From an uncultured bacterium (GTDB lineage Bacteria; Bacillota_I; Bacilli_A; RFN20; CAG-826): a DNA stretch of 53,829 nt. Numbering within the stretch: the stretch's first letter is position 1; each line of letters begins with the position of its first letter. Below, one piece after another: positions 6,961-53,591 of the stretch. Location: positions 1 to 53,829 of the forward strand of contig CASFQR010000004.1 in assembly GCA_949297275.1 (NCBI GenBank), read 5' to 3'. The position numbers and the translations under genes are program-made. The notes beneath the pieces are model-generated. The model did not search any database and was not told the DNA's origin. It saw only the letters and a list, made by a program, of their open reading frames with translations.

Positions 6961-7045
6961 AAATCTGACTGCGTCAAAAACCGTCTTTTCGTTCTGTAAT
7001 AATATTAATACCCACGAAGGTGGAACGCACGAAGAAGGCTTTAGG
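6960..7045. other. Breakpoint between two compositionally different blocks (glmU' / 'gyrB)
   Basis: Two truncated essential genes meet head-to-head with no promoter region, repeat or mobile element. Codon preference switches from CTT-Leu/TTC/TAC on the left to TTA-Leu/TTT/TAT on the right. Confidence 0.75.
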
Positions 7046-12967: not shown

Positions 12968-12988
12968 GAAATAATTTATAATAATAAA

Positions 12989-13067
12989 GCCGTTACAATG
13001 TTGGATTTATGAACCAGGTCAGGATAGGAATATAGCAGCCTTAAGTAATGAAGACATGTGTGACGGT
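12989..13067 (+). ncRNA. ffs: Small (4.5S-type) signal recognition particle RNA
   Basis: Domain IV core ACCAGGUCAGGAUA-GGAA-UAUAGCAGCC (symmetric-loop motif plus GGAA tetraloop). Closing helix GCCGUUACA/UGUGACGGU, followed by a U-run at 13067-13072. TATAAT at 12977-12982 lies 6 nt upstream of the 5' G. Synteny next to tadA matches Bacillus. Confidence 0.85.
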
Positions 13068-13081
13068 TTTTTAAACGAAAA

Positions 13082-24403: not shown

Positions 24404-24469
24404 TAAAAATGTAAGCGTTATCAGTAAAAAAATATAGTATATTTTATTTTTTGGTGTTATCTTATATGT

Positions 24470-24484
24470 GTCAACATAGTTGAC
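24470..24484 (+). promoter_or_regulatory. Perfect inverted repeat GTCAAC-ATA-GTTGAC immediately upstream of the rex RBS
   Basis: 6-3-6 palindrome seen directly in the sequence. It overlaps the TTG that opens the supplied ORF and is followed by GGAGG and the ATG at 24498. Confidence 0.35.
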
Positions 24485-24497
24485 GATGGAGGAAAAA

Positions 24498-25142
24498 ATG
24501 CAAAGCAACATTTCTAAGCGACAACTTGAACGCTACCCGATGTACTTAAATCATTTATTTGGTTTAAAGGAAAGCGGTGAAGTGATGACTAGCGCACCCA
24601 AAATTGCTCGCGCCTTAGGGTTGAATGTCGAACAAGTTCGCAAAGATTTACAAGCAATCTCTTCAAAAGTTGGTCGTCCCAAATTTGGTCGCGAAATCGA
24701 TGAATTGATTGCTGATTTAAAAGCCTTCCTAGGTTATAATTCGTCTAGTCAGGCAATTGTTGTTGGTGTTGGCCACCTAGGCCAAGCATTTATGAATTTT
24801 AAAGGTTTCAATAACTATGGACTCGATATTGTGATGGGTTTTGATAGCAATCCAAACTTATTTGGAAAGTTAATCAATAATAAACCTGTCTATAATATCG
24901 ATGACATGTCGTCTATACTTGCAAAGCACAATATTAAAATTGCGATTCTTACTACTCCGCTTAAAGTAGCACAAGAAGTGAGTAATCTTTTAATTAATTG
25001 TGGAATTAAAGGCATCTGGAATTTTACCGGTGCTTTTATTTATGCGCATAGCGGCGTAGTTATTGAAGATATGAATTTAGCGAGCTCACTCGCAAAATTT
25101 TCTCATCGTTTACAATTATTAAAAGAAAAGGAGAATTGTTAA
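24498..25142 (+). CDS. rex: Redox-sensing (NADH/NAD+) transcriptional repressor Rex
   Basis: Winged-helix N-terminus (RQLERYPMYLNHL) and Rossmann VVGVGHLGQAF...KIAILTTP. GGAGG RBS 5 nt upstream of the ATG at 24498. Confidence 0.88.
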   Translation: MQSNISKRQLERYPMYLNHLFGLKESGEVMTSAPKIARALGLNVEQVRKDLQAISSKVGRPKFGREIDELIADLKAFLGYNSSSQAIVVGVGHLGQAFMNFKGFNNYGLDIVMGFDSNPNLFGKLINNKPVYNIDDMSSILAKHNIKIAILTTPLKVAQEVSNLLINCGIKGIWNFTGAFIYAHSGVVIEDMNLASSLAKFSHRLQLLKEKENC

Positions 25143-27761
25143 ATGCAAGGACAAATAGTTTCGATTGATGCTTTTGAAGAAGTTGATCGTCTAGTAAAAA
25201 ATGGTCAAAAAGCCCTTGAAGAATTTTTGAAACTAAATCAAGAACAAGTCGACTATATCGTCGCGAAATGTTCAGTTGCTGGTCTAGATAACCACGGTCG
25301 TTTAGCGCGCGCCGCTATTGATGAAACTAAGCGTGGTATTTTTGAAGACAAGGCAACAAAAAATTTATTTGCCTGCGAATATGTCGTCAATAATATGCGA
25401 CATCTTAAAACCGTAGGTATTATTAAAGATGATCCAGTAACTGGTATCACGGAAATCGCTGATCCGATGGGTGTAATTTGTGGTATTACTCCAGTTACTA
25501 ACCCAACTAGTACAGTTATTTTTAAGTGTCTAATTGCCTTAAAAACTCGTAATCCAATTATTTTCTCATTCCACCCAAGCGCGCATCAATGTTCAAAGAT
25601 GGCTGCTCAAATTATGCTTGATACAGCAGTCGCTGCTGGGGCACCAAAAAATTGTATTCAATGGATTGAACAAATTTCAATGGATGCGACAACCGCTTTA
25701 ATGAATCATACAGGCGTAGCAACTATCTTGGCTACTGGTGGTAATTCAATGGTAAAAGCTGCCTATAGTTGTGGTAAACCTGCGATGGGTGTTGGGGCTG
25801 GTAATGTTCCAGCTTACATCAATAAAAGCGCGAATGTTGAACAAGCAGTTAATGATATTGTTTCTTCAAAAGCCTTCGATAATGGGATGGTCTGTGCGAG
25901 TGAACAATCAGTGATTATTGATGAAGATATTTATGATGAAGCAATTGAAATATTTAAAAGATTTAAAGTTTATTTTGCTACTCCAGCCGAAAAGACCAAA
26001 CTTGAAAAATATATGTTCGGTTTTGCTAAAGGCGATAAAAATATTGAATTATCACGCTTAAATCCTAAAGTCGTTGGGATGTCGGCTTCTTTTATTGCTG
26101 AACAAGCTGGCTTTAAAGTTCCTGAAGATACTTGCATTATTGCTGTTAAATGTCAAAGCGTTGGTGTTGAAGAACCGCTTTCTAGAGAAAAACTTTCACC
26201 AGTTTTAGCTGTTTATAAAGTTAAAAACGATAAAGAAGGCTTTGAAGTTGCTAGCAAATGTGTGGAATTTAATGGTTTAGGTCATAGCGCAGCTATCCAC
26301 TGTAAAGAGCAAGCAATGGCGGATGCCTATGGTGAAAAATGTAAAGCCATGCGTATTATTTGGAATTCGCCTTCCACCTTTGGTGGCATTGGTAATATTT
26401 ACAATTCATTCTTGCCATCAATGACGCTTGGTTGTGGCTCTTATGGTCGCAACTCAATTGGTGGAAATGTCAGTGCGATCAATTTATTAAATATTAAAAG
26501 AGTTGGTAAAAGGAGAAATACTATGCAATGGTTTAAAGTTCCACGCAAGATTTATTTTGAACGCAATTCCATTCAATATTTACAATCTTGTCGCGATATC
26601 GATAAAGTCTTTATTGTCACCGACCGTTCGATGGTTGATTTTGGTTATGTTAATCGCGTGACTGATCAACTTAATATGCGTCGCAACAAAGTGCAAATTC
26701 AATTATTCTGCGATGTTGAACCAGATCCAGATATTGAAACAGTTCGTCGCGGTGTGAAATTAATGGAAGCCTTCCGCCCAGACACAATTATTGCTATTGG
26801 TGGTGGTTCACCAATGGATGCGGCTAAAGGCATGTGGTTATTCTATGAACACCCTGAAGTTAATTTTGATGATTTAAAACAAAAATTCATGGATATTCGT
26901 AAACGTGCTTTCAAATATCCTGAACTTGGCATTAAATCAAAATTAATTTGTATCCCAACTACTTCTGGTACTGGTTCAGAAGTTACGCCGTTTGCGGTTA
27001 TTTCCGATAAGAAAAATAATAAGAAATATCCATTAACTGACTATTCTTTAACCCCAACCGTTGCGATTGTTGATCCTGAATTTGTTACTACCTTACCTCC
27101 TAAACCAACCGCGATGACCGGGATGGATGTTTTAACCCACGCGATTGAAGCTTATGCCTCGGTGTTAGCAAATGATTACACTGATGGTTTAGCTCTTCAA
27201 GCCATTAAATTAGTCTTTGAATATTTACCGCGTTGCGTTAAAGATGGTCCACATGATTTAGAAGCGCGTGAAAAGATGCATAATGCTGCGACAATTGCTG
27301 GGATGGCGTTCGCGAATGCTTTCTTAGGTATGGCGCATGCTTTAGCCCATAAGATTGGGGCAGAATTCCATACTGTTCACGGTTATACATGTTCAATTGT
27401 TCTCCCTTATGTCATTAGATATAATGGCCAAGTACCTACCAAATTATCAGTTTGGCCAAAATATAATGTCTATAAGGCTGATAAGAAATATCAAGAAATT
27501 GCTAAATTATTAGGCTTACCCGCTGCTACTCCAGAAGAAGGCACCGAATCTTTAGCAAAAGCTGTTAAAGATTTAGCGGTCGAAATTGGCCTTGAAACCA
27601 GCTTTGAAAAACTTGGTATTGCCGAAAAAGATTGGAACGCTAAGGTGGAAGAGATGGCCGTCTTAGCCTATGAAGATCAATGCTCACCCGCTAACCCAAG
27701 AGTTCCTCTTGTTAAAGATATGATTGAAATTTTAAGAAAGGCTTACAAAGGTATCGATTAA
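25143..27761 (+). CDS. adhE: Bifunctional acetaldehyde-CoA / alcohol dehydrogenase
   Basis: 872 aa. N-terminal ALDH domain (catalytic FDNGMVCASEQS), linker, and C-terminal Fe-ADH domain (GGGSPMDAAK, HAIEAY, HKIGAEFH). The start follows the rex stop directly. Confidence 0.96.
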   Translation: MQGQIVSIDAFEEVDRLVKNGQKALEEFLKLNQEQVDYIVAKCSVAGLDNHGRLARAAIDETKRGIFEDKATKNLFACEYVVNNMRHLKTVGIIKDDPVTGITEIADPMGVICGITPVTNPTSTVIFKCLIALKTRNPIIFSFHPSAHQCSKMAAQIMLDTAVAAGAPKNCIQWIEQISMDATTALMNHTGVATILATGGNSMVKAAYSCGKPAMGVGAGNVPAYINKSANVEQAVNDIVSSKAFDNGMVCASEQSVIIDEDIYDEAIEIFKRFKVYFATPAEKTKLEKYMFGFAKGDKNIELSRLNPKVVGMSASFIAEQAGFKVPEDTCIIAVKCQSVGVEEPLSREKLSPVLAVYKVKNDKEGFEVASKCVEFNGLGHSAAIHCKEQAMADAYGEKCKAMRIIWNSPSTFGGIGNIYNSFLPSMTLGCGSYGRNSIGGNVSAINLLNIKRVGKRRNTMQWFKVPRKIYFERNSIQYLQSCRDIDKVFIVTDRSMVDFGYVNRVTDQLNMRRNKVQIQLFCDVEPDPDIETVRRGVKLMEAFRPDTIIAIGGGSPMDAAKGMWLFYEHPEVNFDDLKQKFMDIRKRAFKYPELGIKSKLICIPTTSGTGSEVTPFAVISDKKNNKKYPLTDYSLTPTVAIVDPEFVTTLPPKPTAMTGMDVLTHAIEAYASVLANDYTDGLALQAIKLVFEYLPRCVKDGPHDLEAREKMHNAATIAGMAFANAFLGMAHALAHKIGAEFHTVHGYTCSIVLPYVIRYNGQVPTKLSVWPKYNVYKADKKYQEIAKLLGLPAATPEEGTESLAKAVKDLAVEIGLETSFEKLGIAEKDWNAKVEEMAVLAYEDQCSPANPRVPLVKDMIEILRKAYKGID

Positions 27762-28009
27762 TGACAGTTTTAGTTTGTGTTGGTAGTTCATGTCACCTCA
27801 AAGGTAGTCATGACATTATTGATTTAATGAAAAAGGCAATTGCCGATCATCATTTAGAAGAAAAAGTTACTTTAAAAGCAACCTTCTGCTTAGGTAAATG
27901 CGCTGTTAGTGGTGTTTGCATTAAAGTTGATGATGAAATTATCACAGGTGTGACTAAAAATAACTTCGATGAAGTATTTAAAGCCAACATCTTAGACAAA
28001 TTAAACTAA
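27761..28009 (+). CDS. Thioredoxin-like [2Fe-2S] ferredoxin (NuoE/HydC-like fold, 82 aa)
   Basis: Four Cys in the pattern CVGSSCHLKG...CLGKCAVSGVC. TAATG overlap with the adhE stop. Confidence 0.7.
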   Translation: MTVLVCVGSSCHLKGSHDIIDLMKKAIADHHLEEKVTLKATFCLGKCAVSGVCIKVDDEIITGVTKNNFDEVFKANILDKLN

Positions 28010-28033
28010 TTTAATTTTAATTAGGAGGCCACT

Positions 28034-29722
28034 ATGATTTACGCTTTAGAAAGTCGCAAAAACGATTGTCGCAATTGCTATAAATGCATCCGCGGTTGTC
28101 CAGTTAAATCAATTTCCTTTAGTGATAATCAAGCTAGTATTATTCACGATGATTGTGTGCTTTGTGGACATTGTTACTTACTTTGCCCACAATCTTGTAA
28201 AGAAATTCGTAACGATGTTAATCGCGTTAAAACGCTTCTTCGTAGTGGCAAAAAAGTAATTGTATCGCTCGCCCCGAGTTATGTTTCGGCCTATTTAAAT
28301 GTTTCTTTTGATGAATTAAGAGAAAACTTAATTAAATTAGGCTTTTATGATGTCGAAGAAACCGCTATCGGGGCGACGATTGTAAAAAAAGTCTATGACG
28401 ATATGGTTAATAATAATGATCGCGATGTCATTATTTCGACTTGTTGCCATAGTGTTAATTTACTCGTTCAAAAGCATTATCCTGATTTGATTCCTTGCCT
28501 TGCTGATGTGCTTTCACCAATGCTCGCGCATGGTAAAGATATCAAAGAAAGATATCCAGATGCTTTTGTTGTGTTTGTTGGTCCTTGCATTGCAAAAAAA
28601 GACGAAGTTGATAATGATAAAAATCATTATGTGGATGTCGCCTTAACCTTCATTGAATTAAACGAATGGTTAAAGGGTGAACGCCTTGAATTACAAGAAG
28701 ATGGTGGTACGAAAGAGATTACTAAATCGAAAGCTCGTCTTTTCCCCACGACAGGTGGCATTTTAAATACCATGCAAAAGAACAATTCAGAATATGATTA
28801 TTTGGCAATTGATGGGATGGCTAATGTTATGGAAGCCTTAGAAGATATTCGTCAAGGCAAGGTTCATCATTGCTTTATTGAAATGAGTTCATGTGCGGGA
28901 TCTTGCATCAACGGACCAGCGATTGAAGGTAATGCTCGCTCGTTATTAACTGGCTATTTAAAAGTTCATAAAGCAGCTGGTAAAGAAGACTTTACTGTCA
29001 AAGAAAATGTTTATCAAGATATTAAAACACAATTTAGTTCCACCGGTGTTTCTAAAGCGCGTCCTAGCGATATTGATATTCAAAAAGAATTGCTAGAAAT
29101 GGGTAAATACACTAAACAAGATGAATTAAATTGTGGTTCTTGTGGTTATGATTCTTGTCGCGATAAAGCTATTGCTATTTTAGAAGGTAAAGCCGTGAAA
29201 GAAATGTGCTTACCATTCTTAATGCAAAAGGCCCAAAGTTTCTCTGATAAAGTTATCTTTAATGTACCAAATGGTCTAATGGCCCTAGATGAAAATTTAA
29301 ATATTCAATTAATTAATCCTGCAATGCGAAAGATTGTAGGCGTAACGCATGCGCGTGAAGTAATCGGTAAGAATGTTTCAACTATTCTTGATCCCGGCGT
29401 CTTTGCGATGGCATTAGCAGGCGAGCAAATTCATAATCGTCGCGAATATTTATCGGAATATGATAAATATGTCGAAGCGACCGTTGTTTTTGATGAAAAA
29501 TATCATGTTATTATTTCTATTTTCCGCGACATTAGCGACGAGCAAAAGAAAGTCTTAAAGAAAGAAGAATTCGTCAATAAATCAGTTGATATTGCCGACG
29601 CGATAATTGAAAAGAACATGCGCGTTGTTCAAGAAATTGCTTCCTTACTTGGCGAAAGCGCGGCGGAAACTAAAATCGCTCTCTCTTCATTAAAGGATAC
29701 AATTAAAAATGATGGTGAGTAA
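28034..29722 (+). CDS. hydS: Sensory-type [FeFe]-hydrogenase HydS (group C): 2x[4Fe-4S], H-domain, 4-Cys FeS domain, PAS
   Basis: CRNCYKCIRGCP and CVLCGHCYLLCP. Variant H-cluster motifs STCCHSV, GPCIAKKDE and EMSSCAGSCINGP. CGSCGYDSCRDKA...C module. C-terminal PAS (NGLMALDENLNIQLINPAMRKIVG...). AGGAGG RBS. Confidence 0.85.
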   Translation: MIYALESRKNDCRNCYKCIRGCPVKSISFSDNQASIIHDDCVLCGHCYLLCPQSCKEIRNDVNRVKTLLRSGKKVIVSLAPSYVSAYLNVSFDELRENLIKLGFYDVEETAIGATIVKKVYDDMVNNNDRDVIISTCCHSVNLLVQKHYPDLIPCLADVLSPMLAHGKDIKERYPDAFVVFVGPCIAKKDEVDNDKNHYVDVALTFIELNEWLKGERLELQEDGGTKEITKSKARLFPTTGGILNTMQKNNSEYDYLAIDGMANVMEALEDIRQGKVHHCFIEMSSCAGSCINGPAIEGNARSLLTGYLKVHKAAGKEDFTVKENVYQDIKTQFSSTGVSKARPSDIDIQKELLEMGKYTKQDELNCGSCGYDSCRDKAIAILEGKAVKEMCLPFLMQKAQSFSDKVIFNVPNGLMALDENLNIQLINPAMRKIVGVTHAREVIGKNVSTILDPGVFAMALAGEQIHNRREYLSEYDKYVEATVVFDEKYHVIISIFRDISDEQKKVLKKEEFVNKSVDIADAIIEKNMRVVQEIASLLGESAAETKIALSSLKDTIKNDGE

Positions 29723-30890
29723 TCTCATTACTGAGATCGGTTATTTATCAATTAATCACGACAAAGAAGAACTTTGTGGTGATTGTGTTCAAGTCGTCTC
29801 TGATCCGAATAAAAACACCGTCACCCTCGTTTTAGCGGATGGGCTTGGTAGTGGGGTGAAGGCTAATATTTTAAGTACCTTAACAAGTGAAATTTTATCG
29901 ACTTTAATTTCTCACGATATTCCATTAGAAGAAAGCATTCGCACGATCATGGAAACTTTACCTGTTTGTAAAGTGAGAAATGTGGCCTATTCGACTTTTA
30001 CCATTATCCATGTGACAAATAGCCGAAGGGCGATTGTCTATAATTATGATAATCCTCAACCATTTTTATTAAGAAATGGGAAATACGCCCCACTTGATTG
30101 GCGAAGCCAAATCATTGATGGTAAAACGATTTCTTATACTTCTACTTATTTATTAGAAAATGATGCCTTTTTCTTAATGAGCGATGGCGTTATACATGCA
30201 GGGATTGGAGCAACCCTTAATTTTGGTTGGGAATTGATGGATGTGATTGACTATGCAGAAGGTTTATTCGATAAAAAATATTCTGCGAAATCACTTGCAA
30301 CTTATATCGTTAGTCATGTCAATGATTTATATGAAAATAAACCAGGGGATGACGCGACTTGTGCGGTGATTAAAATTCGTCCGCGTAAACAAGTTAATTT
30401 AATGATTGGACCAGCTTCTAACCGCGAAGACGATAGTAAAATGTTATCTTTATTCTTTGCTAAGGAAGGTAAACACATCGTTTGTGGTGGCACAACCTCT
30501 AGCGTGGTTTCAAGATATTTAAAGAAAGAATTAGAATTTCCTTTAGATTATATTGATCCCGAAGTACCACCAACCGCGCATATTGAAGGAGTTGATTTAG
30601 TGACCGAAGGGGTCATTACGATCAATAAAGTTTTAAAGTACGCGAATAATGTCTTTGGTGATAACAAAGATTATTTTACTTGGTCATTTAAGCAAGATGG
30701 CGCCTCCCAAATCGCGCGATTATTATTTGAAGAAGCTACCGACATTAATTTCTTTGTTGGCTGTGCAATTAATCCTGCTCACCAACAAGAAGGTTTAGCG
30801 ATTAATTTTAATACGAAAATGCAACTAGTGGACGAACTCTCAAAAGCCCTCAAAAAGATGAATAAGTCCATCAAAGTCAGTTATTTTTAA
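29709..30890 (+). CDS. PP2C/SpoIIE-family serine phosphatase with an uncharacterised C-terminal domain
   Basis: GDCVQVV...LVLADGLGSGVKANILS and FFLMSDGVIHAG are typical SpoIIE/PP2C blocks. About 150 C-terminal residues have no recognised motif. 14-nt overlap with hydS. Confidence 0.8.
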   Translation: MMVSNLITEIGYLSINHDKEELCGDCVQVVSDPNKNTVTLVLADGLGSGVKANILSTLTSEILSTLISHDIPLEESIRTIMETLPVCKVRNVAYSTFTIIHVTNSRRAIVYNYDNPQPFLLRNGKYAPLDWRSQIIDGKTISYTSTYLLENDAFFLMSDGVIHAGIGATLNFGWELMDVIDYAEGLFDKKYSAKSLATYIVSHVNDLYENKPGDDATCAVIKIRPRKQVNLMIGPASNREDDSKMLSLFFAKEGKHIVCGGTTSSVVSRYLKKELEFPLDYIDPEVPPTAHIEGVDLVTEGVITINKVLKYANNVFGDNKDYFTWSFKQDGASQIARLLFEEATDINFFVGCAINPAHQQEGLAINFNTKMQLVDELSKALKKMNKSIKVSYF

Positions 30891-30905
30891 AGATTGGAGT
30901 CTACT

Positions 30906-32360
30906 ATGGAAGAAGTAAAAGCTAAATTTGATACGCGGGTACAAGAACTAAAATATAGTGTTTTAAAGGAAGTTGCTAAAGCTTATTTTAATGGTACTTT
31001 ATTAGAAGATTATAATAAGATTCCCGAAATAATTTCACCTGGTCCAAAATCAACATTTAGATGTTGTATTTATAAAGAAAGAGCCATCGTTCAAGAAAGA
31101 ATGAAAATGGCTTTAGGTGGCGATCGATCGCGCAATAATGTCGTACAAGTTTTAAAGATTGCGTGCGATGAATGTCCTTTAGGCGGTTATGAAGTAACTC
31201 GCAATTGCCGCGGTTGTATTGCTCACCGCTGCGAAAAAGCTTGCCCACGACATGCGATTACTTTTGATCAACAAACGCGAACTGCCCATATTGATAAAAC
31301 TAAATGTATTAACTGTGGTTTATGTGCGAAAGCTTGTCAATATAACGCTATTACAAATTATACTCGTCCTTGCGAAGCTTCTTGTAAGATGGGAGCAATT
31401 AAACCGGATGCAAATTTTGCCGCGGAAATCGATGATGAAAAATGTATTCAATGTGGTCAATGTGTATATCAATGCCCCTTTGGAGCAATTATGGATGTTT
31501 CTTATATCACTGATGTAATTGATATGATTAAAGATAGTGATTTCTCGAAGAAATATCATTTATACGCGATTATTGCCCCTTCAATCTCTTCACAATTTAA
31601 ATATGCAACTTTAGGTCAAATTATTAAAGCGATCGAAGTATTAGGTTTTCATAATGTCGTTGAAGCTGCCTTAGGAGCGGATATGGTTGCCTATAAAGAA
31701 GCAAAAGAATTATCTGAAAAAGGTTTCTTATTATCGAGTTGTTGCCCAGCTTTTGTCAGTTTTGTTGAAAAGAAATTTCCTAAATTAAAAGAAAATATTT
31801 CTGAAAATCTCTCCCCAATGGCAACAATTGCCCAATATATTAAAACTGTTGATCCAACTTCTAAAATTGTTTTTATTGGGCCCTGCGTAGCTAAAAAACA
31901 AGAAATTAAACGCCCGAAAGTTTCTCAATATATTGATTCGGTTTTAACTTTTGAAGAATTGCAGGCTTTAATCGATAGCCGCGATATTGATGCTTCTTCA
32001 TTAGAAGAATCACCTTTAGACAACGCTTCGTATTTTGGCCGAATTTTTGCCCGTAGTGGTGGCTTACATGACGCAGTAGAAGAAGGCTTAAAAGAACAAA
32101 ATATTGATTTTGAATTAAAGGCTGGAATTGGTGATGGTTTAGATATGTGCCGTCAATTATTGGTGAAATCGCAAGGCGCTGAAAAGCCTTATAACTTCAT
32201 CGAAGGGATGATTTGCACGAATGGTTGTATTGGTGGGCCTTGTTGTTTAACTCACGAAGTAAGAGATAAAAAAGAAGTTGATAAATATGGCCTAGAAGCT
32301 AAAGAACAAAGCATCGAAGGCGCGATTAAATATGTCTATATGACGAATAAATTTGATTGA
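30906..32360 (+). CDS. [FeFe]-hydrogenase, non-prototypical (group B-like), with N-terminal FeS domains
   Basis: Ferredoxin motifs CINCGLCAKACQ and CIQCGQCVYQCP. H-cluster motifs SSCCPAF, GPCVAKKQE and EGMICTNGCIGGPCC. The ATG at 30906, preceded by GGAG, is preferred over the TTG at 30894. Confidence 0.85.
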   Translation: MEEVKAKFDTRVQELKYSVLKEVAKAYFNGTLLEDYNKIPEIISPGPKSTFRCCIYKERAIVQERMKMALGGDRSRNNVVQVLKIACDECPLGGYEVTRNCRGCIAHRCEKACPRHAITFDQQTRTAHIDKTKCINCGLCAKACQYNAITNYTRPCEASCKMGAIKPDANFAAEIDDEKCIQCGQCVYQCPFGAIMDVSYITDVIDMIKDSDFSKKYHLYAIIAPSISSQFKYATLGQIIKAIEVLGFHNVVEAALGADMVAYKEAKELSEKGFLLSSCCPAFVSFVEKKFPKLKENISENLSPMATIAQYIKTVDPTSKIVFIGPCVAKKQEIKRPKVSQYIDSVLTFEELQALIDSRDIDASSLEESPLDNASYFGRIFARSGGLHDAVEEGLKEQNIDFELKAGIGDGLDMCRQLLVKSQGAEKPYNFIEGMICTNGCIGGPCCLTHEVRDKKEVDKYGLEAKEQSIEGAIKYVYMTNKFD

Positions 32361-32365
32361 GATAT

Positions 32366-33097
32366 TTAATTTAATTCATTAGAATTTTTAATTTGATAAT
32401 CAAGCACAGGCTCAAAATATAAAGTGCCTGTGATTTGATTATAAATATATTTAATTGGGGCAGAAGTGACTAGTTCATAAGTTCGTCGATTAGTTTCCAA
32501 ACAAAATGATATTTGAATTTCGTCGAAATTTAAAAAATATATAGCAGGAATATAACTTACCGAAGTGTGTTGATAAAGATTAGTAATCCTTTTAACTAAT
32601 TTTGATTCAACAGATAGTGTTTCAACAATTGTTTCTACGCGATATTCTTCGCTAGAAAAAGCATCGTAGGCGAATTCTTCTAATGCGTGGTATTTTATGG
32701 TAGAACCAGGGAATTCCTTTTTAGCAGCAATATAAGCGCGTTTAAAAATCTCATTTGGACCATAAAAAGGCAATTCTAAATAAGCGTCATATGTTGCATT
32801 CATTGTTCCAAAAGAAACTTCGATTGGAAAAGCACCTTCAACCTCATTATATTTTGTTTCATAATTAAGTTTTGTCCCAATTAAAACATTACATTCATTT
32901 AGTACTTCAAAACCTTGATATTCTATATCTTCTTCATTTTGCATGACATCGATGATGTGACCAATTTGTGACGCAGGATAGGTAAAATAATATGGCTCAT
33001 CATAAACATCAATAGTTGGTTTATGACATGCGGTTAATAAAAATAAAATTGGTAAGGAAATAAGTTGCTTTGTAGAAAGGTATAGGTTTATTCTCAT
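32366..33097 (-). CDS. Lipoprotein of unknown function, paralog of 35835..36638
   Basis: Lipobox LLTAC. Shares blocks with the other lipoprotein: YYFTY/YYFIY, GHIIDV/NHIIDY, NVLIG, and a C-terminal (I/F)SF-rich block. Confidence 0.6.
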   Translation of the reverse strand: MRINLYLSTKQLISLPILFLLTACHKPTIDVYDEPYYFTYPASQIGHIIDVMQNEEDIEYQGFEVLNECNVLIGTKLNYETKYNEVEGAFPIEVSFGTMNATYDAYLELPFYGPNEIFKRAYIAAKKEFPGSTIKYHALEEFAYDAFSSEEYRVETIVETLSVESKLVKRITNLYQHTSVSYIPAIYFLNFDEIQISFCLETNRRTYELVTSAPIKYIYNQITGTLYFEPVLDYQIKNSNELN

Positions 33098-33226
33098 ATT
33101 TTCATTTTAAAGTTTGATAATTTTTTTGCAAGCAAGAATTAAAAAATATACAAAAAATAAAAAAAATAAAAAATGTTGAATATAACAATAGCCACATTTT
33201 AAAATAATATCAAAGAGGTAGAAGAA

Positions 33227-35845
33227 ATGATGAAAATTAAAAAAATATTTCCACTTACGATGATTGTTGCTTTTTTAATGTGTGGCATTAATGGTCAACA
33301 AAAAATAAGCAAACCAGTTGAAGCATTAAATGAAGAAAACAACATAATTGAAATAAAAACTCTACCAAAGAAAGTTCATAAATCGTTAATTATAGAAAAT
33401 GAATATAATTTTTCTTTTGATTTTGATGAAAAAGTTATAACGACATATTCTTACAAAACTTATAACTTAGACGATGTTGATATATCTATACTCAATACGA
33501 ACAACCTTAATGTTTCTATCCTTATAAATGAAGACTATTCCCGTCTAAATTTATCGGTGTTTTTAGATGAATATTATTGTAGCAAAATTGATTTGTTTAT
33601 TTATTCTAATTTAGGAATAACCGAATTTTCTTATGTTTCAGATTTGGATGTATTTGAAAAATGGTTGGATAAATGCATTCTTTTAGGAAAAATACAAGAA
33701 GACTATAAAACCGATTTATTCGAGTCTTTTATGATGAGAAATGTTAGAACCGAAACAAGTTATGTGGATAATTCTACTAATCAAGGCATCAGCCCTATGG
33801 GTATTAGAAATGAGATTGTATCTATTGGTGGACAAATAAGTGTATTTGATCCAAACGCACAAAAACATATATATTTAGACGGATTTACAGTAAAAATTTT
33901 TAAAGAAGGAGACGATTGTTTAAAAGACACTCCTATTCTTACAACAGAAACTATGCCTTATGGTTTTTATTATGCAGAATTTGTGCCTTACGAATATTTA
34001 CCCGATTATTTTTACGTAGCTGTTTATCCTGAAAACGAAACATATTCTGTAAATACTGTTAGCAAATTTTTAAGTGCGAATTTCTTTGAATCCCCAAGCT
34101 ATTATATTACAAGTGGATTACTTCTAGCAGAGGAAGGGCGCTCTTACACAACAAACATAGTTATTGATTATAATTTAAATCAAGGCTATAGCGCGATTGA
34201 TGGTGCTTTTTCTCTTGCTGCTGCGTTAAGCCTTGGTCAAAGCTTCTATTATAAAAAAGAAAATATCACAAGCAGTAATTTGCCAGAGAGATTTATGGCC
34301 ATATATCCAGCAGATTCAGACGATCTTAATAATACATATTATGGAGACGGCGGATTAAACCTTACTTTTGCATATATGTATTATGGCCTATATGATTTTG
34401 AAATTTGTGGCGACTGGCTTAATGCTATTCATGAATATACACATTTTTTGCAATATTATTTAGGTATTTATTCAATAAAATTAACAGATTTAATTAATGG
34501 CGGCGTAAGGCATAGTAGTAGCGCAGATTTAGCGGAATATCTAGGATGGAATGATGTTCCATATGGTATGGAGAAAGCAACGCGAATTGCATGGACCGAA
34601 GGATGGGGCTATTTTTATCCTTTAGCGGTTTATCAAGAATATTTTGATTTAATTTCTGGCACTTGTTTCGATAACTTTAACACATTATATAATGATTCGT
34701 TAAATTTCTATGTCGAGGAAAATTCTCAAAGTCAAGAAGAAGGAGATGGACCAAAAATAAAAGATGGTGGACATGAATTTAGTGAAACGCAAGAAAACGC
34801 TATCACAACTTTTCTATTGAATTTTTATAATAAAGAATTTGATTTTGGAGATGTATATACCGATGAAATTGTTTGGAATTTATTAACAACAAGTGGCGTA
34901 CATACATTTTCTGATTTTATCGATAGTTTATACGAATCTGATTATCGTTTTTATGGTGGTCTAGGGGATTTACTTAATAAAACAAAAATTGGGCCTGGTC
35001 CTCTAACAATAACCAGTTACTATGATTTTTATTCCTCTCCTACAATACAATGGAATGAAAATGGCTCATCAAAGAATCCATTGAATAAGTTTAAGTTAGC
35101 TTTGTTTAAAAATTATACACTTATTGATTCTTATTTAATAACAAATTTTACACCAGATGAAAATGGTGTAATCACATACAAAATACCAGAAACCACTTGG
35201 TCGATTATCAAGAGTTTAGCAACTGAATTTAGCCGTGTAAGCATTGCGATTGCTGGTTATAATGAAAGAGATTCAATAGAAACTGGCCCATATTATTCAA
35301 ATTTTGTTGATTTATATATACCTCAAATAAATGTTGATATTACTCCAGAAATGACCGAATTTTATGATGGATATCCAAGTGCAGAAATCAATGAAGATGT
35401 GGTTTTGTTCGATGAATACACCGTTTCTACTAAGAGGCTTCGAGCTGGTTTTATACAAAACGAATGTATAAATTTATCACCAAGAAGAGAGGGCGCAGGA
35501 TTAGCTTATTTAGAATTTGATTTTGGTGATGACATTGTAAGAGAAATTGATATTGATATTTCGTTTTGGAGCGATTCTGAATATTTTACATCAACCGATA
35601 GTAGTGCTTATATTCAGTATTATGATGAATTTGTGGGTGATTGGGTTACTTCATTTGATTTACTTGCCGATTGTGTTCTTTCTACCGATAGAACAAATCC
35701 CAATCATTTAAACGCCAGATTTATCGATGAAACAACACACAAATTTAGAATATATGCTGAAACCGAGCCAATCGGTAATGTAAATAAAGGAAGAATTTCC
35801 ATTCATAAAATCACAGCGAAAGGGATGTTTAATTATGGCCAATAA
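33227..35845 (+). CDS. Secreted or surface 872-aa protein with a gluzincin-like HEYTH...E motif (putative metallopeptidase)
   Basis: N-terminal signal or anchor (IFPLTMIVAFLMCG). HEYTH at 34430-34444 in the context AIHEYTHFLQYY. Candidate third ligand in AWTEGWGYF (Glu at 34598-34600). A beta-sandwich-like segment (GGQISVFDPN...GFTVKIF) precedes it. Confidence 0.55.
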   Translation: MMKIKKIFPLTMIVAFLMCGINGQQKISKPVEALNEENNIIEIKTLPKKVHKSLIIENEYNFSFDFDEKVITTYSYKTYNLDDVDISILNTNNLNVSILINEDYSRLNLSVFLDEYYCSKIDLFIYSNLGITEFSYVSDLDVFEKWLDKCILLGKIQEDYKTDLFESFMMRNVRTETSYVDNSTNQGISPMGIRNEIVSIGGQISVFDPNAQKHIYLDGFTVKIFKEGDDCLKDTPILTTETMPYGFYYAEFVPYEYLPDYFYVAVYPENETYSVNTVSKFLSANFFESPSYYITSGLLLAEEGRSYTTNIVIDYNLNQGYSAIDGAFSLAAALSLGQSFYYKKENITSSNLPERFMAIYPADSDDLNNTYYGDGGLNLTFAYMYYGLYDFEICGDWLNAIHEYTHFLQYYLGIYSIKLTDLINGGVRHSSSADLAEYLGWNDVPYGMEKATRIAWTEGWGYFYPLAVYQEYFDLISGTCFDNFNTLYNDSLNFYVEENSQSQEEGDGPKIKDGGHEFSETQENAITTFLLNFYNKEFDFGDVYTDEIVWNLLTTSGVHTFSDFIDSLYESDYRFYGGLGDLLNKTKIGPGPLTITSYYDFYSSPTIQWNENGSSKNPLNKFKLALFKNYTLIDSYLITNFTPDENGVITYKIPETTWSIIKSLATEFSRVSIAIAGYNERDSIETGPYYSNFVDLYIPQINVDITPEMTEFYDGYPSAEINEDVVLFDEYTVSTKRLRAGFIQNECINLSPRREGAGLAYLEFDFGDDIVREIDIDISFWSDSEYFTSTDSSAYIQYYDEFVGDWVTSFDLLADCVLSTDRTNPNHLNARFIDETTHKFRIYAETEPIGNVNKGRISIHKITAKGMFNYGQ

Positions 35846-36638
35846 ATTAATTAAAAAAGTAAATACTATAGCCTTGATTTTTCCAAGTGTTCTTGCTTTA
35901 TCATCTTGTGATTTTTTTAATCCTTTTCCTTATGATCCAAATTTAAGAACCGAATATTATTTTATCTATGATAAATTCCAAATTAATCACATTATCGATT
36001 ATACCGATCCTCGAGGCGGCGGAAATTCTTCTACTAATGTGTTAATCGGTTTTTTAGCCCCGCATGAAAATCAAAATATAAAAGAATCTGGTGGTCTAAT
36101 TTGCGATATTTCTTACGGATTAAGAAGTGAAGAATATTATAATTTTAGTAATACGGCTTTTGCTAATGAAGAAGGACTAACACCATTATCTGCCGTTATC
36201 TGCTTTGGTCAAAAAATAAGCAATAGTAATCCTTTTGATGGTAATATCGATGATTTATCGCTATTTAAACAAAACTATTTGATAGTCCAAGAATTGAGTG
36301 TTGAAGAAGCGTTAGACGATAAATATCTCGTTGATACTTATAAAGAAATCGCTTATCAAGAATATAAAATACGAGTAGCAGAGAGATTTTTTAACACCTT
36401 TCATTATAACGAAGAGTTTTTAATTCCTTTAGATTTTATCATTGCAAATAATTTTGAATTCTCTTTCTCCTTTTTTGAAATATATGAGCGAGATGTCATC
36501 ATCGAAGGCCAAACAAAATATTATGTTGATATCGAAAGCTCATATACAATTTCATTAGAATATTATGAAATAGAAGATAAGATTATCTTTCCAACCCCTT
36601 TTGAAGAATCACAAAGATTCGTCGTTGAAGATTTATAA
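35835..36638 (+). CDS. Lipoprotein of unknown function, paralog of 32366..33097
   Basis: Lipobox LALSSC. 11-nt overlap with the upstream 872-aa gene suggests translational coupling. Shares sequence blocks with the other lipoprotein. Confidence 0.6.
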   Translation: MANKLIKKVNTIALIFPSVLALSSCDFFNPFPYDPNLRTEYYFIYDKFQINHIIDYTDPRGGGNSSTNVLIGFLAPHENQNIKESGGLICDISYGLRSEEYYNFSNTAFANEEGLTPLSAVICFGQKISNSNPFDGNIDDLSLFKQNYLIVQELSVEEALDDKYLVDTYKEIAYQEYKIRVAERFFNTFHYNEEFLIPLDFIIANNFEFSFSFFEIYERDVIIEGQTKYYVDIESSYTISLEYYEIEDKIIFPTPFEESQRFVVEDL

Positions 36639-39871: not shown

Positions 39872-42523
39872 ATGAAAAAGTCGCAACATAGAACCCCTTA
39901 TTTCGATGCCTTAAAAAAATATGTCTTAGATGATGTATCACCCTTTGATGTTCCAGGCCATCATATGGGCAGTGTTCCTAATAAATTAAAATCATTTTTA
40001 GGTGAAATGGTTTTTAAGGCGGATGTTAATGCTCCTATTGGGCTAGATAATTTAGCGTCTCCTACGGGTGTGTTATTAGAAGCTTCGCGATTAATGGCTA
40101 ACTTCGCAAAAGCTGATCGCGCCTATTTTTTAATCAACGGCACGACTAGTGGCATTATCGCGATGATTATGACATCTTGTAAGGCTAACGATAAAATCAT
40201 TTTACCGCGAAATGTCCATAAATCGATTATTAGCGCTTTGGTCCTTAGCGGTGCGACACCAATTTATATCATGCCAAAACTCGATACCGAAATTGAGATT
40301 GCTAATCAACCATCGGTCGATGAATATATTAAAGCAATGAATCGCTATCCATCTGCGAAGGCTATTTTTGTTATTAATCCTACTTATTTTGGCTCAGTAA
40401 TAGATTTAAAAACTTTAGTCACTGAAGCCCATAAACGCGGGATGGCGGTTTTAGTTGATGAAGCGCATGGTGCGCATTATTACTTTAATAAAAATGGTCC
40501 CATCAGTGCGATGGAAGCAGGCGCGGATATATCGAGTGTCTCCTTCCATAAAACAGCGGGTTCATTAACGCAGTCGAGTGTTTTGTTATTAAACGAAGGA
40601 ATTTTCTTTAAAGAAGATATTCAAAAAACCTTAAATATTCTTAACACCACCTCGCCATCGACTCTCTTATTAGCGAGCCTAGATACCGCGCGTGAATTTG
40701 TGGCAATTCATGGACAAGAATATATGAATCGCATTTTAGAATATTCAATGTATGCGCGGGGGCAAATCAATAAAATCAAAGGGTTTAAAACAATCGACCG
40801 CGAACATTTTATTAAATATGGTTCCTTTGATTATGATTTAACCAAACTAGTTATTGCCATTGATCATTTAGATATTAATGGTTTTGAATTATATAAAATC
40901 TTAAAGAACGAATATAACATTCAAGTGGAATTAGCAGAAACTTATGTGGTGATGTGCGTGTTATCTATCGGCACTAAAAAGAAACACCTCCTAGCGTTAA
41001 TTAAGGCCTTAAAAGATATATCTAAAAAGCATTATAAGAAGAGCAATGCGCGCCTTGAACACACTTTTGGTATTGATTTTCCTTATATTTTGATGCGTCC
41101 GCGTTTAGCTTATCACGCGGCGGGCAAAAAAGCGCCATTAGAAGAAGCAATTAATGAAGTGAGTAAAGAGCAATTAATGATTTATCCTCCGGGTATTCCC
41201 TTAATCGTGCCAGGCGAAGTCTTTACTAAAGAACTTGTTGATCGCATTTTATCTTATAAAAAAAGTAAATGTACGATCCTTTCACAATATAAAAGGGCTG
41301 ATTATGTTTCGATTATTGATAAAGATAAATGGCCACAATTTCATTTATATCGTCGCCGCTTAGATGATTATTTATTAAAGAAAATTACTACCCCGCGCGG
41401 CGATGATTATTTAATGCCGTTTGAAGGTGATAAACATCAAGGCACCATCATCTTTTTACCATATCGAAAAGATACATGGCGGAATAATGCTTTGCCTGCT
41501 CGTGAAGCTTATAAAAATGTCATCATGGCAATTAAAAACTATGAGAAGGTTTATGTCGGTATTGATCCTAGTATCTATAACAAAGTTATTGCTGAATATG
41601 AAAATATCGATAATGTCATTCCTTTAAAAATTAAATATGACGATGCTTGGGCGCGCGATACCTCGCCTATTTTTGTAAAAAATAAGCAAGGCAAATTGCG
41701 TTGTGTTGATTTTAGATTTAATGCTTGGGGCGGCGATGTTGATGGTTTATATTCTAATTACAAAGAAGATAATTTATTAAAGAAAACAATCGCTAAATAT
41801 TTTAATGTTGATCGTTATTATTTAGATGATTTTATCCTTGAAGGCGGGAGCATCCATGTCGATGGTCAAGGAACATGTTTAGTGACGGAAGCATGTTTAT
41901 TATCAGCGGGGCGAAATCCTACCTTAACTAAACAAGAAATAGAAGAAACTTTAAAAATTTATCTTAATGTTTCAAAAGTCATTTGGCTTAAGCATGGCAT
42001 TTATTTAGATGAAACGAATGAACATATTGATAATATTGCCTGTTTTATTCGTCCAGGAGTAATTGCGTTAGGGTGGTGCCTAGATAAAGATGATCCACAA
42101 TATGCTTATTCGGCCTCTTGTTATAACATTTTAAAAAAGGAAACGGATGCTTTGGGGAATCCCTTTAAAATCGTCAAGATCCCTTTACCAGCCCCGATGT
42201 ATATGTCAAAAGAAGAAGCTTTTGGTATTAAAAATGGTAGATATGGGGCGTTAGAACGCCTCGAAGGCAATCGCCTAGCTGCAAGTTATATCAATTTTTA
42301 CCAAGGGGAAAAATTTGTCATTATGCCAAAATTTAATGTTCCAGAAGATGATATTGCTTATAAAAAGATTAAAAAACAATATCCTGATAAAGATGTGATT
42401 CAAATTGATAGCCGAGAAATTCTTTTAGGCGGCGGCAATATTCATTGCATTACCATGCAAGTACCTTTTAAGGAGGAAATTAACGATGAAAGTCTCTGTG
42501 GCAATCACCCAAATGAAAATTAG
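39872..42523 (+). CDS. speA-aguA: Fusion protein: Orn/Lys/Arg-decarboxylase-family (SpeA-type arginine decarboxylase) N-terminal domain plus agmatine deiminase C-terminal domain (883 aa)
   Basis: N-terminal half: FDVPGHHMG and the PLP-lysine motif SFHKTAGSLTQSS. From about aa 505: MPFEGDKHQGTIIFLPYRKDTWR, WARDTSPIF, LEGGSIHVDGQGTCLVTE, NEHIDN, and catalytic GGGNIHCITMQ. One uninterrupted frame. Confidence 0.9.
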   Translation: MKKSQHRTPYFDALKKYVLDDVSPFDVPGHHMGSVPNKLKSFLGEMVFKADVNAPIGLDNLASPTGVLLEASRLMANFAKADRAYFLINGTTSGIIAMIMTSCKANDKIILPRNVHKSIISALVLSGATPIYIMPKLDTEIEIANQPSVDEYIKAMNRYPSAKAIFVINPTYFGSVIDLKTLVTEAHKRGMAVLVDEAHGAHYYFNKNGPISAMEAGADISSVSFHKTAGSLTQSSVLLLNEGIFFKEDIQKTLNILNTTSPSTLLLASLDTAREFVAIHGQEYMNRILEYSMYARGQINKIKGFKTIDREHFIKYGSFDYDLTKLVIAIDHLDINGFELYKILKNEYNIQVELAETYVVMCVLSIGTKKKHLLALIKALKDISKKHYKKSNARLEHTFGIDFPYILMRPRLAYHAAGKKAPLEEAINEVSKEQLMIYPPGIPLIVPGEVFTKELVDRILSYKKSKCTILSQYKRADYVSIIDKDKWPQFHLYRRRLDDYLLKKITTPRGDDYLMPFEGDKHQGTIIFLPYRKDTWRNNALPAREAYKNVIMAIKNYEKVYVGIDPSIYNKVIAEYENIDNVIPLKIKYDDAWARDTSPIFVKNKQGKLRCVDFRFNAWGGDVDGLYSNYKEDNLLKKTIAKYFNVDRYYLDDFILEGGSIHVDGQGTCLVTEACLLSAGRNPTLTKQEIEETLKIYLNVSKVIWLKHGIYLDETNEHIDNIACFIRPGVIALGWCLDKDDPQYAYSASCYNILKKETDALGNPFKIVKIPLPAPMYMSKEEAFGIKNGRYGALERLEGNRLAASYINFYQGEKFVIMPKFNVPEDDIAYKKIKKQYPDKDVIQIDSREILLGGGNIHCITMQVPFKEEINDESLCGNHPNEN

Positions 42524-43346
42524 CGGAAATAAAGAAGAGAATATTTTAAAGGCTGATAAATTAATTGCTGAAGCAAAAAACGCAGGCGCGCAGATCATTC
42601 TCTTACAAGAACTATTTTCCGATTTATATTTTTGTCAAATCGAAGATTATGATAATTTTAATAAAGCTGAAACATTTAATGACTCTTCACTAATTAAACA
42701 TTTCCAAGAAGTAGCTAAAAAGCATCAAGTTGTATTACCAATCTCATTTTTTGAAAAGAGTGGGGTGAATTATTTTAATTCTTTAGCAATGATTGACGCG
42801 GATGGAAAGGTTTTAGGTTTATATCGTAAAATGCATATTCCAACTGGGCAATGTTATGAAGAAAAATTTTATTTTACTCCTGGTGATTTAGGTTATAAGG
42901 TTTTTCAAACTAAATATGGCAAAATTGGAGTAGGAATTTGTTGGGATCAATGGTTTCCGGAAGTCGCGAGAATTTTAACTTTAAAAGGGGCGGAATTGAT
43001 TGTTTATCCAACAGCAATTGGAAGCGAGCCTGTATTAAAGCGCGATTCGATGATTCATTGGCAAAATACGATGGCGGGGCATGCATCTGCTAATTTAATA
43101 CCCGTCTTAGCGAGCAATCGTGTCGGTAAAGAAATTGCTAAAGATTCTTCGATGGTGTTTGGCGGTTATTCTTTTATTGCTAATCAGCATGGGGAGGTTG
43201 TTGCCCAAATGAACCGTGAAGAAGAAGGCTATCGCCTTTATCAATTTGATTTAGCAGCAATTAATCAAGAAAGAATATCGTGGGGAGTATTTCGCGATCG
43301 CCGAATCGATTCCTATCATGATTTATTAAAAAATGGCGAAGAATAA
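42486..43346 (+). CDS. aguB: N-carbamoylputrescine amidase (nitrilase superfamily)
   Basis: LQELF (Glu), YRKMHIP (Lys) and ICWDQWFPE (Cys) form the catalytic triad context. 38-nt overlap with the fusion gene. Confidence 0.9.
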   Translation: MKVSVAITQMKISGNKEENILKADKLIAEAKNAGAQIILLQELFSDLYFCQIEDYDNFNKAETFNDSSLIKHFQEVAKKHQVVLPISFFEKSGVNYFNSLAMIDADGKVLGLYRKMHIPTGQCYEEKFYFTPGDLGYKVFQTKYGKIGVGICWDQWFPEVARILTLKGAELIVYPTAIGSEPVLKRDSMIHWQNTMAGHASANLIPVLASNRVGKEIAKDSSMVFGGYSFIANQHGEVVAQMNREEEGYRLYQFDLAAINQERISWGVFRDRRIDSYHDLLKNGEE

Positions 43347-53523: not shown

Positions 53524-53591
53524 AAACCCTTCCTTTCTTAAACGCTTTAAGCCCATACTAATTAGTACAGGCTTAAAGTTAATTTTATTAA

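Follow-up and report, generated by a model that had tools for sequence, protein, structure and literature searches.

The 53,829-nucleotide (nt) contig CASFQR010000004.1 of an uncultured bacterium (Bacillota_I; Bacilli_A; RFN20; CAG-826; assembly GCA_949297275.1), which as a whole is called the window here, carries six co-directional genes on its plus strand between positions 24480 and 32360: rex, adhE, hfsA, hfsB/hydS, hfsC and hfsD. Judged from their order, their domains and comparison with better-characterised Clostridia, these genes probably form one operon, a reduced version, in the Bacilli lineage, of a widespread rex-adhE-hfs module, which would co-express ethanol formation and ferredoxin-dependent H2 evolution when H2 and NADH are high. 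The coupling of adhE to a HydS/PP2C pair is already on record in model organisms and is the rule in the clade of HydS proteins to which the one studied here belongs. How much energy fermenters gain, and how much H2 reaches methanogens and other hydrogenotrophs of the gut and the rumen, depends on the H2/ethanol balance, which in cellulolytic ethanologens is also a target of engineering.

Organisation of the six genes

The preliminary description of this DNA reported six co-directional, nearly gap-free genes, and every open reading frame (ORF) and junction could be matched to the base. The first gene, rex (24498-25142, plus strand; 214 amino acids, aa), encodes a redox-sensing (NADH/NAD+) transcriptional repressor and ends in a TAA (25140-25142) that is followed without a gap by the ATG of adhE (25143-27761, plus strand), the gene of an 872-aa bifunctional acetaldehyde-CoA/alcohol dehydrogenase. 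The stop codon of adhE shares one base (TAATG) with the start codon of hfsA (27761-28009, plus strand), encoding an 82-aa thioredoxin-like [2Fe-2S] ferredoxin, and a spacer of 24 nt including AGGAGG leads on to hfsB/hydS (28034-29722, plus strand), whose 562-aa product is a putative H2-sensing [FeFe] hydrogenase of M2f architecture. This gene overlaps by 14 nt with hfsC (29709-30890, plus strand; 393 aa), encoding a PP2C/SpoIIE-type Ser/Thr phosphatase with an additional C-terminal domain, and 15 nt including GGAG separate hfsC from the ATG of hfsD at 30906 (30906-32360, plus strand), the gene of a group B [FeFe] hydrogenase of 484 aa. Read from the sequence, the successive junctions from rex to hfsD measure 0, -1, 24, -14 and 15 nt. 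The stop codon of hfsD is TGA, and 5 nt separate it from a convergent gene. The genome had at first been called Mollicutes-like; TGA serves as a stop in the window, under genetic code 11, and its relatives are labelled as metagenome-assembled genomes (MAGs) of Bacilli or Erysipelotrichaceae. For rex, the mechanical ORF starts at a TTG (24480), whereas the ATG at 24498 lies 5 nt past a GGAGG and is the likely start.

Because the stop of adhE and the start of hfsA overlap, there is no space for a promoter or terminator at this junction. Within the whole unit, terminator-like sites number 3 against 8.0 expected from shuffled sequences, and promoter-like sites occur at chance level (51 against 44.6 expected in shuffles). 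A weak terminator-like hairpin in the 3' end of rex (25080-25093) was set aside as a chance match on the first of these counts.

The gene identities first proposed were right, all six products having matches to curated models or domains. The Rex protein passes the curated model of the Rex repressors (NF003994, 218 bits, cut-off 130) and consists of a winged-helix N-terminal domain (PF06971, Put_DNA-bind_N) and a Rossmann NAD(H) domain (PF02629, CoA_binding), aligning over its full length to two solved structures of Rex proteins, 3wg9 and 2vt2. Both the GxGxxG motif and the recognition helix (QVRKDL) are conserved, but the wing is atypical, with KVGRPKFGR where FGxxGxxGYGY is usual. AdhE scores 1379 bits against NF010378 (cut-off 951) and contains the Aldedh, Fe-ADH and ADH_Fe_C domains; HfsA matches PF01257 with 36 bits and shows the cysteine pattern Cx4Cx31Cx3C. 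Pairs of adhE with a Rex that has a canonical recognition helix and a Rossmann fold are also found in Thermoanaerobacter, Thermoanaerobacterium and Clostridium (PMC5886521). The pair in the window differs from them in its atypical wing and in lacking a TTGTTA-N6-TAACAA box upstream, and its rex stands at the head of the very operon that it presumably controls.

Distribution of the module

The order hfsA-hfsB-hfsC-hfsD, that is, a 2Fe-2S protein, a PAS-bearing hydrogenase, a PP2C phosphatase and a second hydrogenase, all co-directional, is found in the window exactly as in the four-gene core hfsABCD of Thermoanaerobacterium saccharolyticum and Clostridium thermocellum, and the kinship with hfsABCD and HydS-PP2C systems suggested earlier is supported by this common gene order and by the domains. 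In order to see how far the linkage to rex and adhE extends, we took a census of 80 loci from species-representative genomes (denoted by L numbers), found with a HydS profile, to which the six proteins were then mapped. The census consists of the best matches to the HydS of the window, at 50% identity or more, and because its loci were chosen in this way, the fractions given below hold for this clade and not for all group C enzymes. Downstream counts refer to 63 loci with enough sequence, and upstream counts to the 50 loci in which 6.5 kb or more precede hydS.

Downstream of hydS, hfsC is present in 63/63 loci and hfsD in 57/63; the hfsABCD order is kept on the downstream side in 56/63 and on the upstream side in nearly all of the census. 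Among the 50 loci informative for the upstream side, adhE lies upstream and co-directional in 32 (and is missing there in 18), rex in 25, both genes in 20 and a kinase gene in 38. The commonest form (16 loci) comprises eight genes, rex-adhE-X-hfsA-hfsA'-hfsB-hfsC-hfsD, in which X, standing between adhE and hfsA, encodes a 249-aa APH/RIO-like kinase (PF01636 54 bits, RIO1 46 bits). Compared with this Clostridial cluster, the window has neither the kinase nor the second hfsA: its adhE overlaps a single hfsA, which, of the two copies that Clostridial loci possess, is more similar to the hfsB-proximal one. The six-gene form, with one hfsA and no kinase, is limited to the closest, Bacilli-type loci (L001, L005-L008, L013). 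In five of them (L001, L005, L006, L007, L013) the six-gene order recurs at 54-80% HydS identity amid different flanking genes, so that the arrangement goes beyond chance.

A gene for a LysR-type regulator stands directly upstream and co-directional in 29/57 loci. With its HTH_1 and LysR_substrate domains (for example L037:4281-5204) it is in effect a ninth gene of the cluster in many Clostridial genomes, and we found no mention of it as a neighbour of the cluster in the literature cited here.

It should also be noted that several contigs bearing a Firmicutes-type cluster (L006, L007, L008, L016, L043, L066) come from bins named as Slackia, Gemmiger, Acidiphilium, Methanocorpusculum or Sphaerochaetaceae, and that L007 and L008 agree in all gene coordinates and identities, yet belong to bins of two different 'species'. 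These are probably mis-binned MAG contigs, and organism names in the census are therefore unreliable.

The junction of rex and adhE with HydS and PP2C was initially implied to be special to this genome. The comparison does not support this view, given the frequency of adhE and rex in the census and the precedents in Ruminococcus albus and C. thermocellum. A 'putative eight-gene cluster' of R. albus 7 comprises a ferredoxin-only hydrogenase, a bifunctional alcohol/aldehyde dehydrogenase, a putative sensory group C hydrogenase and a Ser/Thr phosphatase; when an H2 consumer was present in co-culture, its expression was lower by a factor of 111, and direct sensing of H2 was proposed (Greening et al. 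2019, PMC6776011). According to PMC5707799 (Eminoglu et al. 2017), Zheng et al. (2014) name the components as HydA2, HydS, Ser/Thr phosphatase and alcohol/aldehyde dehydrogenase; a Ser/Thr kinase adjacent to HydS is quoted there from the same authors. This cluster, co-regulated and expressed at high H2, resembles the window in that AdhE is joined by a PAS-bearing sensory hydrogenase with its Ser/Thr phosphatase and by a hydrogenase of the ferredoxin type. It differs in having eight genes instead of six genes with one hfsA and no kinase, and in that its hydrogenase is described as group A1, whereas HfsD of the window passes the group B1 model. The count of eight fits the Clostridial form of the 16 loci, the gene-by-gene orthology being inferred from the published description, as R. 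albus is not part of the census. For C. thermocellum, locus tags place adhE (Clo1313_1798; PMC10503014) two tags, hence one intervening gene, from hfsA-D (Clo1313_1796-1793; PMC5707799), with hfsB as Clo1313_1795 (PMC7063780), which is the same adjacency as in the window. In the window, rex, adhE and hfs are joined with no gene in between, and the host is an uncultured low-GC relative of Bacilli, not a thermophilic Clostridium. The comparison thereby shows how broad the rex-adhE-hfs linkage is, being common in gut anaerobes.

The region upstream of rex

The DNA upstream of the first cluster gene was compared across all loci and revealed a conserved dyad, which is distinct from the canonical Rex box. 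Its Clostridial form, TATCGATA-N6-TA(T/C)CGATA, is situated some 100-117 nt ahead of the rex start codon (e.g. L017:5205, L039:5240, L062:5246) and in many loci just upstream of a -35-like TTCACA or TTCCCA; the form in Bacilli-type loci, TATCRGTA-AAAAAA-TAYTGATA, is nearer to rex. The dyad precedes rex in 28 of 32 rex-led clusters and occurs in 2 of 35 others, and it is rare elsewhere in 1.35 Mb. What the window retains is a remnant at 24419-24440 (plus strand), TATCAGTA-AAAAAA-TATAGTAT, with an intact left half and a degenerate right half that has 4 mismatches. No intact dyad was found in the window at up to 3 mismatches, and matches to the pattern are at chance level.

Canonical Rex boxes (TTGTTA-N6-TAACAA) overlap the -10 element in 10/14 adhE-led Clostridial clusters, against a background of 2.5%, and in 5/25 rex-led clusters. 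Upstream of rex in the window, within 24404-24497, no operator of the form TTGTGAA/TTGTTAA-N4-TTCACAA/TTAACAA was found at up to 3 mismatches, and no canonical box of either the Clostridial or the Bacillus type precedes rex or adhE; over the 250 nt upstream, the closest match, with 3 mismatches, falls within metRS, at the 3' end of its coding region. NADH sensing by Rex had been described as wired to this operon, but in the absence of a canonical box Rex control of the promoter is not borne out and is suggested by adjacency only.

A perfect palindrome of 15 bp, GTCAAC-ATA-GTTGAC (24470-24484, plus strand), lies 3 nt before the Shine-Dalgarno sequence GGAGG of rex (24488-24492). At the same position L001 has a different perfect palindrome, TCAATCA-ATA-TGATTGA, a compensatory pattern. 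The RNA folds predicted for the palindromes of the window and of L001 reach -8.9 kcal/mol (z -1.8) and -12.1 kcal/mol (z -2.9), and both hairpins are modest, partly pairing the Shine-Dalgarno sequence. The palindrome is a weak candidate for an operator or for a hairpin in the 5' untranslated region, as only two sequences speak for it.

These observations raise the question whether the main transcriptional input to the operon comes from a factor binding the dyad and not from Rex of the usual specificity, the candidates being the Clostridial LysR-type regulator or the present Rex subfamily with its atypical wing. Such an input would be decaying in the window, where the operon would then be constitutive or controlled by the palindrome or hairpin at 24470-24484. 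The distribution of the dyad, its position just upstream of the -35 and the frequent adjacency of the LysR gene agree with this proposal, as does an extra copy of the dyad in L079 (2851), upstream of an Fe-ADH gene beside a LysR gene. The window itself, having neither a Rex box nor an intact dyad, and the palindrome, of which the position and not the sequence is conserved in L001, fit it as well. However, the dyad tracks rex and not LysR, and LysR-adhE loci without rex have degenerate versions only. The palindrome is backed by two sequences, and any binder of the dyad is a candidate by sequence. The dyad, which tracks rex strongly, might be the operator of this Rex subfamily, but a changed specificity is hard to reconcile with a recognition helix that is canonical. 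Taken together, we regard a dyad-binding factor as the main input as conceivable, if on the whole unlikely.

The putative H2 sensor HydS

The 562-aa protein had been assigned to sensory group C and not to catalytic group A, and its architecture agrees with this assignment. Two N-terminal [4Fe-4S] motifs (aa 9-55, 8 Cys) are followed by the H-domain (aa 73-295; Fe_hyd_lg_C, PF02906, 166 bits), by a Cx2Cx4Cx16C motif corresponding to PF04060 (aa 365-394; C367, C370, C375, C392) and by a PAS domain (aa 408-502). The PAS matches fall below the cut-off in a scan of the full-length protein, but exceed it when aa 396-562 are scanned alone (PAS_9 28.5 bits, cut-off 27; PAS 24.0 bits, cut-off 22.6). 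HydS remains far below the cut-offs of the models for group A (94 bits, cut-off 406) and group B1 (202 bits, cut-off 450). The order of its domains is M2f, by which group C is defined in the recent literature, and it is the PAS domain after the C-terminal cluster that separates group C from group D (PMC13104023, PMC10407848).

Residues were numbered by alignment to CpI and their invariance was judged in 24 homologues. All four ligands of the H-cluster are kept and invariant (C138, C185, C287 and C291, equivalent to CpI C300, C355, C499 and C503). Two active-site positions are changed, M353 to G183 and M497 to S285, and the proton pathway of group A is interrupted at three of five positions (E279 to K119, S319 to A157, R286 to M124), all of these changes being invariant as well. 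The equivalent of C299, the proton-relay cysteine, is kept as C137, again in all 24 relatives. The shell of sensory-type enzymes is described as having 'mostly' Ala in place of C299, a replaced M497 (Ser in TmHydS) and a proton pathway that is not conserved (PMC10407848, PMC11803613). Two enzymes suited for comparison, TmHydS of Thermotoga maritima (group C, M2f) and TamHydS of Thermoanaerobacter mathranii (group D, M2e), have the N-terminal 2x[4Fe-4S], the H-domain and the extra C-terminal 4-Cys cluster in common with the HydS described here (PMC13104023, PMC10407848, PMC11803613). The PAS domain and the exchange of M497 for Ser are shared with TmHydS, and the group A proton pathway is likewise not conserved. 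Differences concern the C299 position, which is Ala131 in TmHydS and Ala137 in TamHydS (PMC10407848) but Cys in the present HydS and its 24 aligned relatives, and M353, which is Gly in our protein and Ser191 in TamHydS. By its sequence, HydS thus appears sensor-like in architecture and in most of its active-site shell, with the replacement of C299 as the one hallmark that it does not show.

A further difference from TmHydS and TamHydS is a strongly conserved helical tail of about 60 aa after the PAS domain (aa 506-562, 29549-29719; e.g. NM..VQEIA.LLGE.A.ETK.AL..LK). A Pfam scan for families of the methyl-accepting chemotaxis protein type or others gave no match to this tail, which is a candidate interface to the PP2C phosphatase.

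HfsC and HfsD

The phosphatase domain of HfsC covers aa 1-233 and matches PF07228 (SpoIIE/PP2C) with 58 bits. Its metal motifs are of the RsbX/SpoIIE type (ADGLGSG, SDG, DD), the ADGLGSG being identical to that of RsbX, and the residues D25, D44-G45, D159-G160 and D214-D215 are invariant. An AlphaFold2 model of the protein (confidence score pLDDT 86) retrieves SpoIIE (E 1.6e-13), RsbU and RsbX in Foldseek. Behind this domain, aa 229-393 form a separate conserved alpha/beta domain, which when modelled alone reaches a pLDDT of 88.6. A Pfam scan of the domain gave no match, and comparison with folds in the PDB gave none that was significant, the best reaching E 0.06 and TM scores of about 0.36-0.39 (phosphoglycerate kinase, macro domains); the domain is not a STAS domain, and these searches point to no other known module. 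Across 1.84 billion representatives, the domain occurs almost exclusively behind PP2C, in proteins of about 390 aa. Docking to HydS, to HfsD or to a substrate are possibilities for its role.

HfsC can be compared to the phosphatases of the partner-switching modules (RsbU/RsbX-RsbV-RsbW and SpoIIE-SpoIIAA-SpoIIAB), whose SpoIIE/RsbX-type PPM fold and metal motifs its N-terminal domain shares. Unlike in those modules, neither the window nor the Clostridial clusters have a STAS protein or a GHKL anti-sigma kinase, the kinase of the latter is APH/RIO-like, and the C-terminal domain of HfsC is not STAS-like.

HfsD passes the curated model TIGR04105 (FeFe_hydrog_B1) with 548 bits (cut-off 450) over aa 12-454. 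Its motifs L1-L3 are intact (SSCCP, GPCVAKKQE, EGMICTNGC), both L1 cysteines and M497 are kept, and M353 is changed to G. HfsD is probably the catalytic, ferredoxin-linked and H2-evolving enzyme of the unit.

The same data bear on a different view of the four hfs products, as subunits of one multimeric catalytic hydrogenase with HfsB as a second catalytic or electron-transfer subunit; the operon would then hold two electron sinks under Rex and no H2 sensing. HfsB indeed has both L1 cysteines, including the equivalent of the proton-relay Cys299, as well as all four ligands of the H-cluster, the four genes almost never occur apart, the name hfs originally implied subunits, and removal of the complete hfs operon decreases hydrogenase activity in T. 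saccharolyticum (PMC5707799). Yet the PAS domain and the C-terminal 4-Cys motif of HfsB, its exchanges of M497 for Ser and M353 for Gly and the breaks in its proton pathway do not suit such a subunit; a PP2C protein with intact metal motifs is not a subunit of a hydrogenase, and most Clostridial clusters have a gene for a kinase within them. Moreover, deletion of hfsB alone raises hydrogenase activity and ethanol (PMC5707799). We therefore consider a multimeric enzyme without H2 sensing quite improbable.

Proposed function and its limits

The genetics of T. saccharolyticum provide the basis for a functional reading of the cluster. Deletion of hfsB or of hfsA raises the ethanol yield (Eminoglu et al. 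2017, PMC5707799), expression of adhE and rex is up in high-ethanol strains, the effect of the deletion requires hfsC and hfsD, and hfsB deletion raises hydrogenase activity (PMC5707799), while rex deletion raises adhE expression (PMC5886521). The statement in the preliminary description that hfsB lesions alter adhE expression and ethanol yield is thereby supported, both being raised (PMC5707799). The HfsB of T. saccharolyticum and C. thermocellum has a PAS domain and acts as a regulator of adhE and ethanol (PMC5707799, PMC7063780, PMC10503014).

By analogy, H2 that accumulates would make it impossible to dispose of NADH as H2; the ratio NADH/NAD+ would rise, Rex would be released from the DNA and the entire unit would be transcribed. 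AdhE would then reoxidise NADH through ethanol formation, while HfsD, possibly with HfsA, would reoxidise reduced ferredoxin to H2, both sinks being on together in a 'high-H2 mode'. At the level of signalling, HydS might bind H2 at its H-cluster, its C-terminal FeS/PAS part would restrain or release HfsC, and HfsC would dephosphorylate a putative target that raises the level or activity of AdhE. Since AdhE and HfsD would be co-expressed as one module, the two sinks are not alternatives, and the initial notion of a gate deciding for ethanol versus H2 is not borne out, as judged from the homologues. A similar logic is known from the HoxBC-HoxJ-HoxA system of Ralstonia eutropha as summarised in PMC5707799, in which a crippled hydrogenase serves as the H2 sensor that steers the phosphorylation-dependent expression of hydrogen metabolism. 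That system is a [NiFe] one, with an unrelated metal site and unrelated protein families, and it relies on a histidine kinase and a response regulator, not on a Ser/Thr phosphatase.

As to partners of HfsC, it had been noted that no kinase, STAS/anti-sigma partner or response regulator is visible, and Pfam scans of every ORF of at least 150 aa confirm this for the window. Neither a STAS substrate nor a HATPase_c anti-sigma kinase accompanies HfsC in the window or the related loci. A tblastn search of the 54-kb window for the APH/RIO-like kinase gave nothing (best E 2.8), and by tblastn the LysR-type regulator is likewise absent from it. With the kinase and the LysR gene missing from the locus, HfsC would work with a kinase encoded elsewhere or mainly at the protein level, and an opposing kinase must in this lineage be encoded elsewhere or be dispensable. 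The joint loss of the kinase and the LysR gene in the Bacilli variant, together with half of the dyad in the window, while HydS, the PP2C and both enzymes are retained, could also be taken to mean that kinase, LysR and dyad are the transcriptional output branch of HydS/PP2C in Clostridia and that the remnant in the window is a minimal, purely post-translational H2-sensing circuit, in which the private C-terminal domain of HfsC would let it act on AdhE or HfsD directly. We find this combined proposal rather doubtful.

Several points weigh against a single operon that couples Rex and H2 sensing to both sinks. Its promoter has no canonical Rex box and its dyad is half-decayed, which weakens the case for Rex control; neither a kinase nor a phosphatase substrate is visible in the window; and HydS, unlike TmHydS and TamHydS, retains the Cys299 equivalent, so that a catalytic role is conceivable. 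The census, moreover, is drawn from the best matches to the HydS of the window, the operon is called from the DNA sequence only, and the physiology is wholly extrapolated from Clostridia, the host being uncultured.

The hfs operon of T. saccharolyticum we take to be unlinked to both adhE and rex. One might see the adjacency in the window as a by-product of genome compaction in which rex-adhE and hfsABCD are separate, abutting transcription units, a view that could draw on the distant locus tags of adhE (Tsac_0416) and rex (Tsac_2615; PMC5886521) in that species, on the response of both genes to hfs mutations in trans (PMC5707799, PMC5886521) and on the census loci that have hfs without adhE or rex, but which the shared base of adhE and hfsA, the lack of any excess of promoter- or terminator-like sites, the same order in Bacilli- and Clostridia-type loci despite unrelated flanks and the co-regulation of the R. 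albus cluster (PMC6776011) render highly improbable.

For the rex-adhE-hfs operon as we read it, the comparison supplies concrete candidates for the missing steps of HydS signalling, namely the APH/RIO-like kinase, the LysR-type regulator and the promoter dyad. Together with the retained cysteine and the natural, kinase-less minimal variant, which could ease heterologous reconstitution, they are leads for work on C. thermocellum, on R. albus and on the biochemistry of HydS.

Other features of the window

Directly behind hfsD, three ORFs (one of 243 aa on the minus strand and two, of 872 and 267 aa, on the plus strand) occupy 32366-36638, up to a DUF3810 gene. They have no Pfam match, their N-termini are lipoprotein-like or signal-like, and the GC content falls to about 0.29-0.32. 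Because hfsD directly adjoins the DUF3810 gene in the syntenic locus L001, this segment looks like a lineage-specific insertion. Further downstream, 39872-43346 encodes, ahead of a CN_hydrolase, a protein of 883 aa in which an Orn/Lys/Arg decarboxylase and an agmatine deiminase (PAD_porph) are fused. The result is a fused route of putrescine synthesis, which L001 has as well.

Upstream of the operon, a gyrB ORF (6833-8092, 419 aa) is without the N-terminal ATPase domain; on the minus strand, a hexapeptide-transferase ORF (6151-6960) is placed convergently to it, and gyrB overlaps this ORF at its 5' end. The cumulative GC skew is lowest near 8 kb, and genes change orientation in the gyrB region (6151-8092), which may represent either an assembly join or a replication-origin-like switch whose gyrB is truncated. 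The sole Rfam match in the window is a small bacterial signal recognition particle RNA at 12982-13079 (RF00169, 65.6 bits). Near the end of the contig, a 410-aa ORF on the minus strand (52324-53556) contains both a small methyltransferase domain (MTS, aa 39-113) and, at aa 106-256, a delta' domain of DNA polymerase III and is either an unusual fusion or the product of an upstream start that merges two genes.

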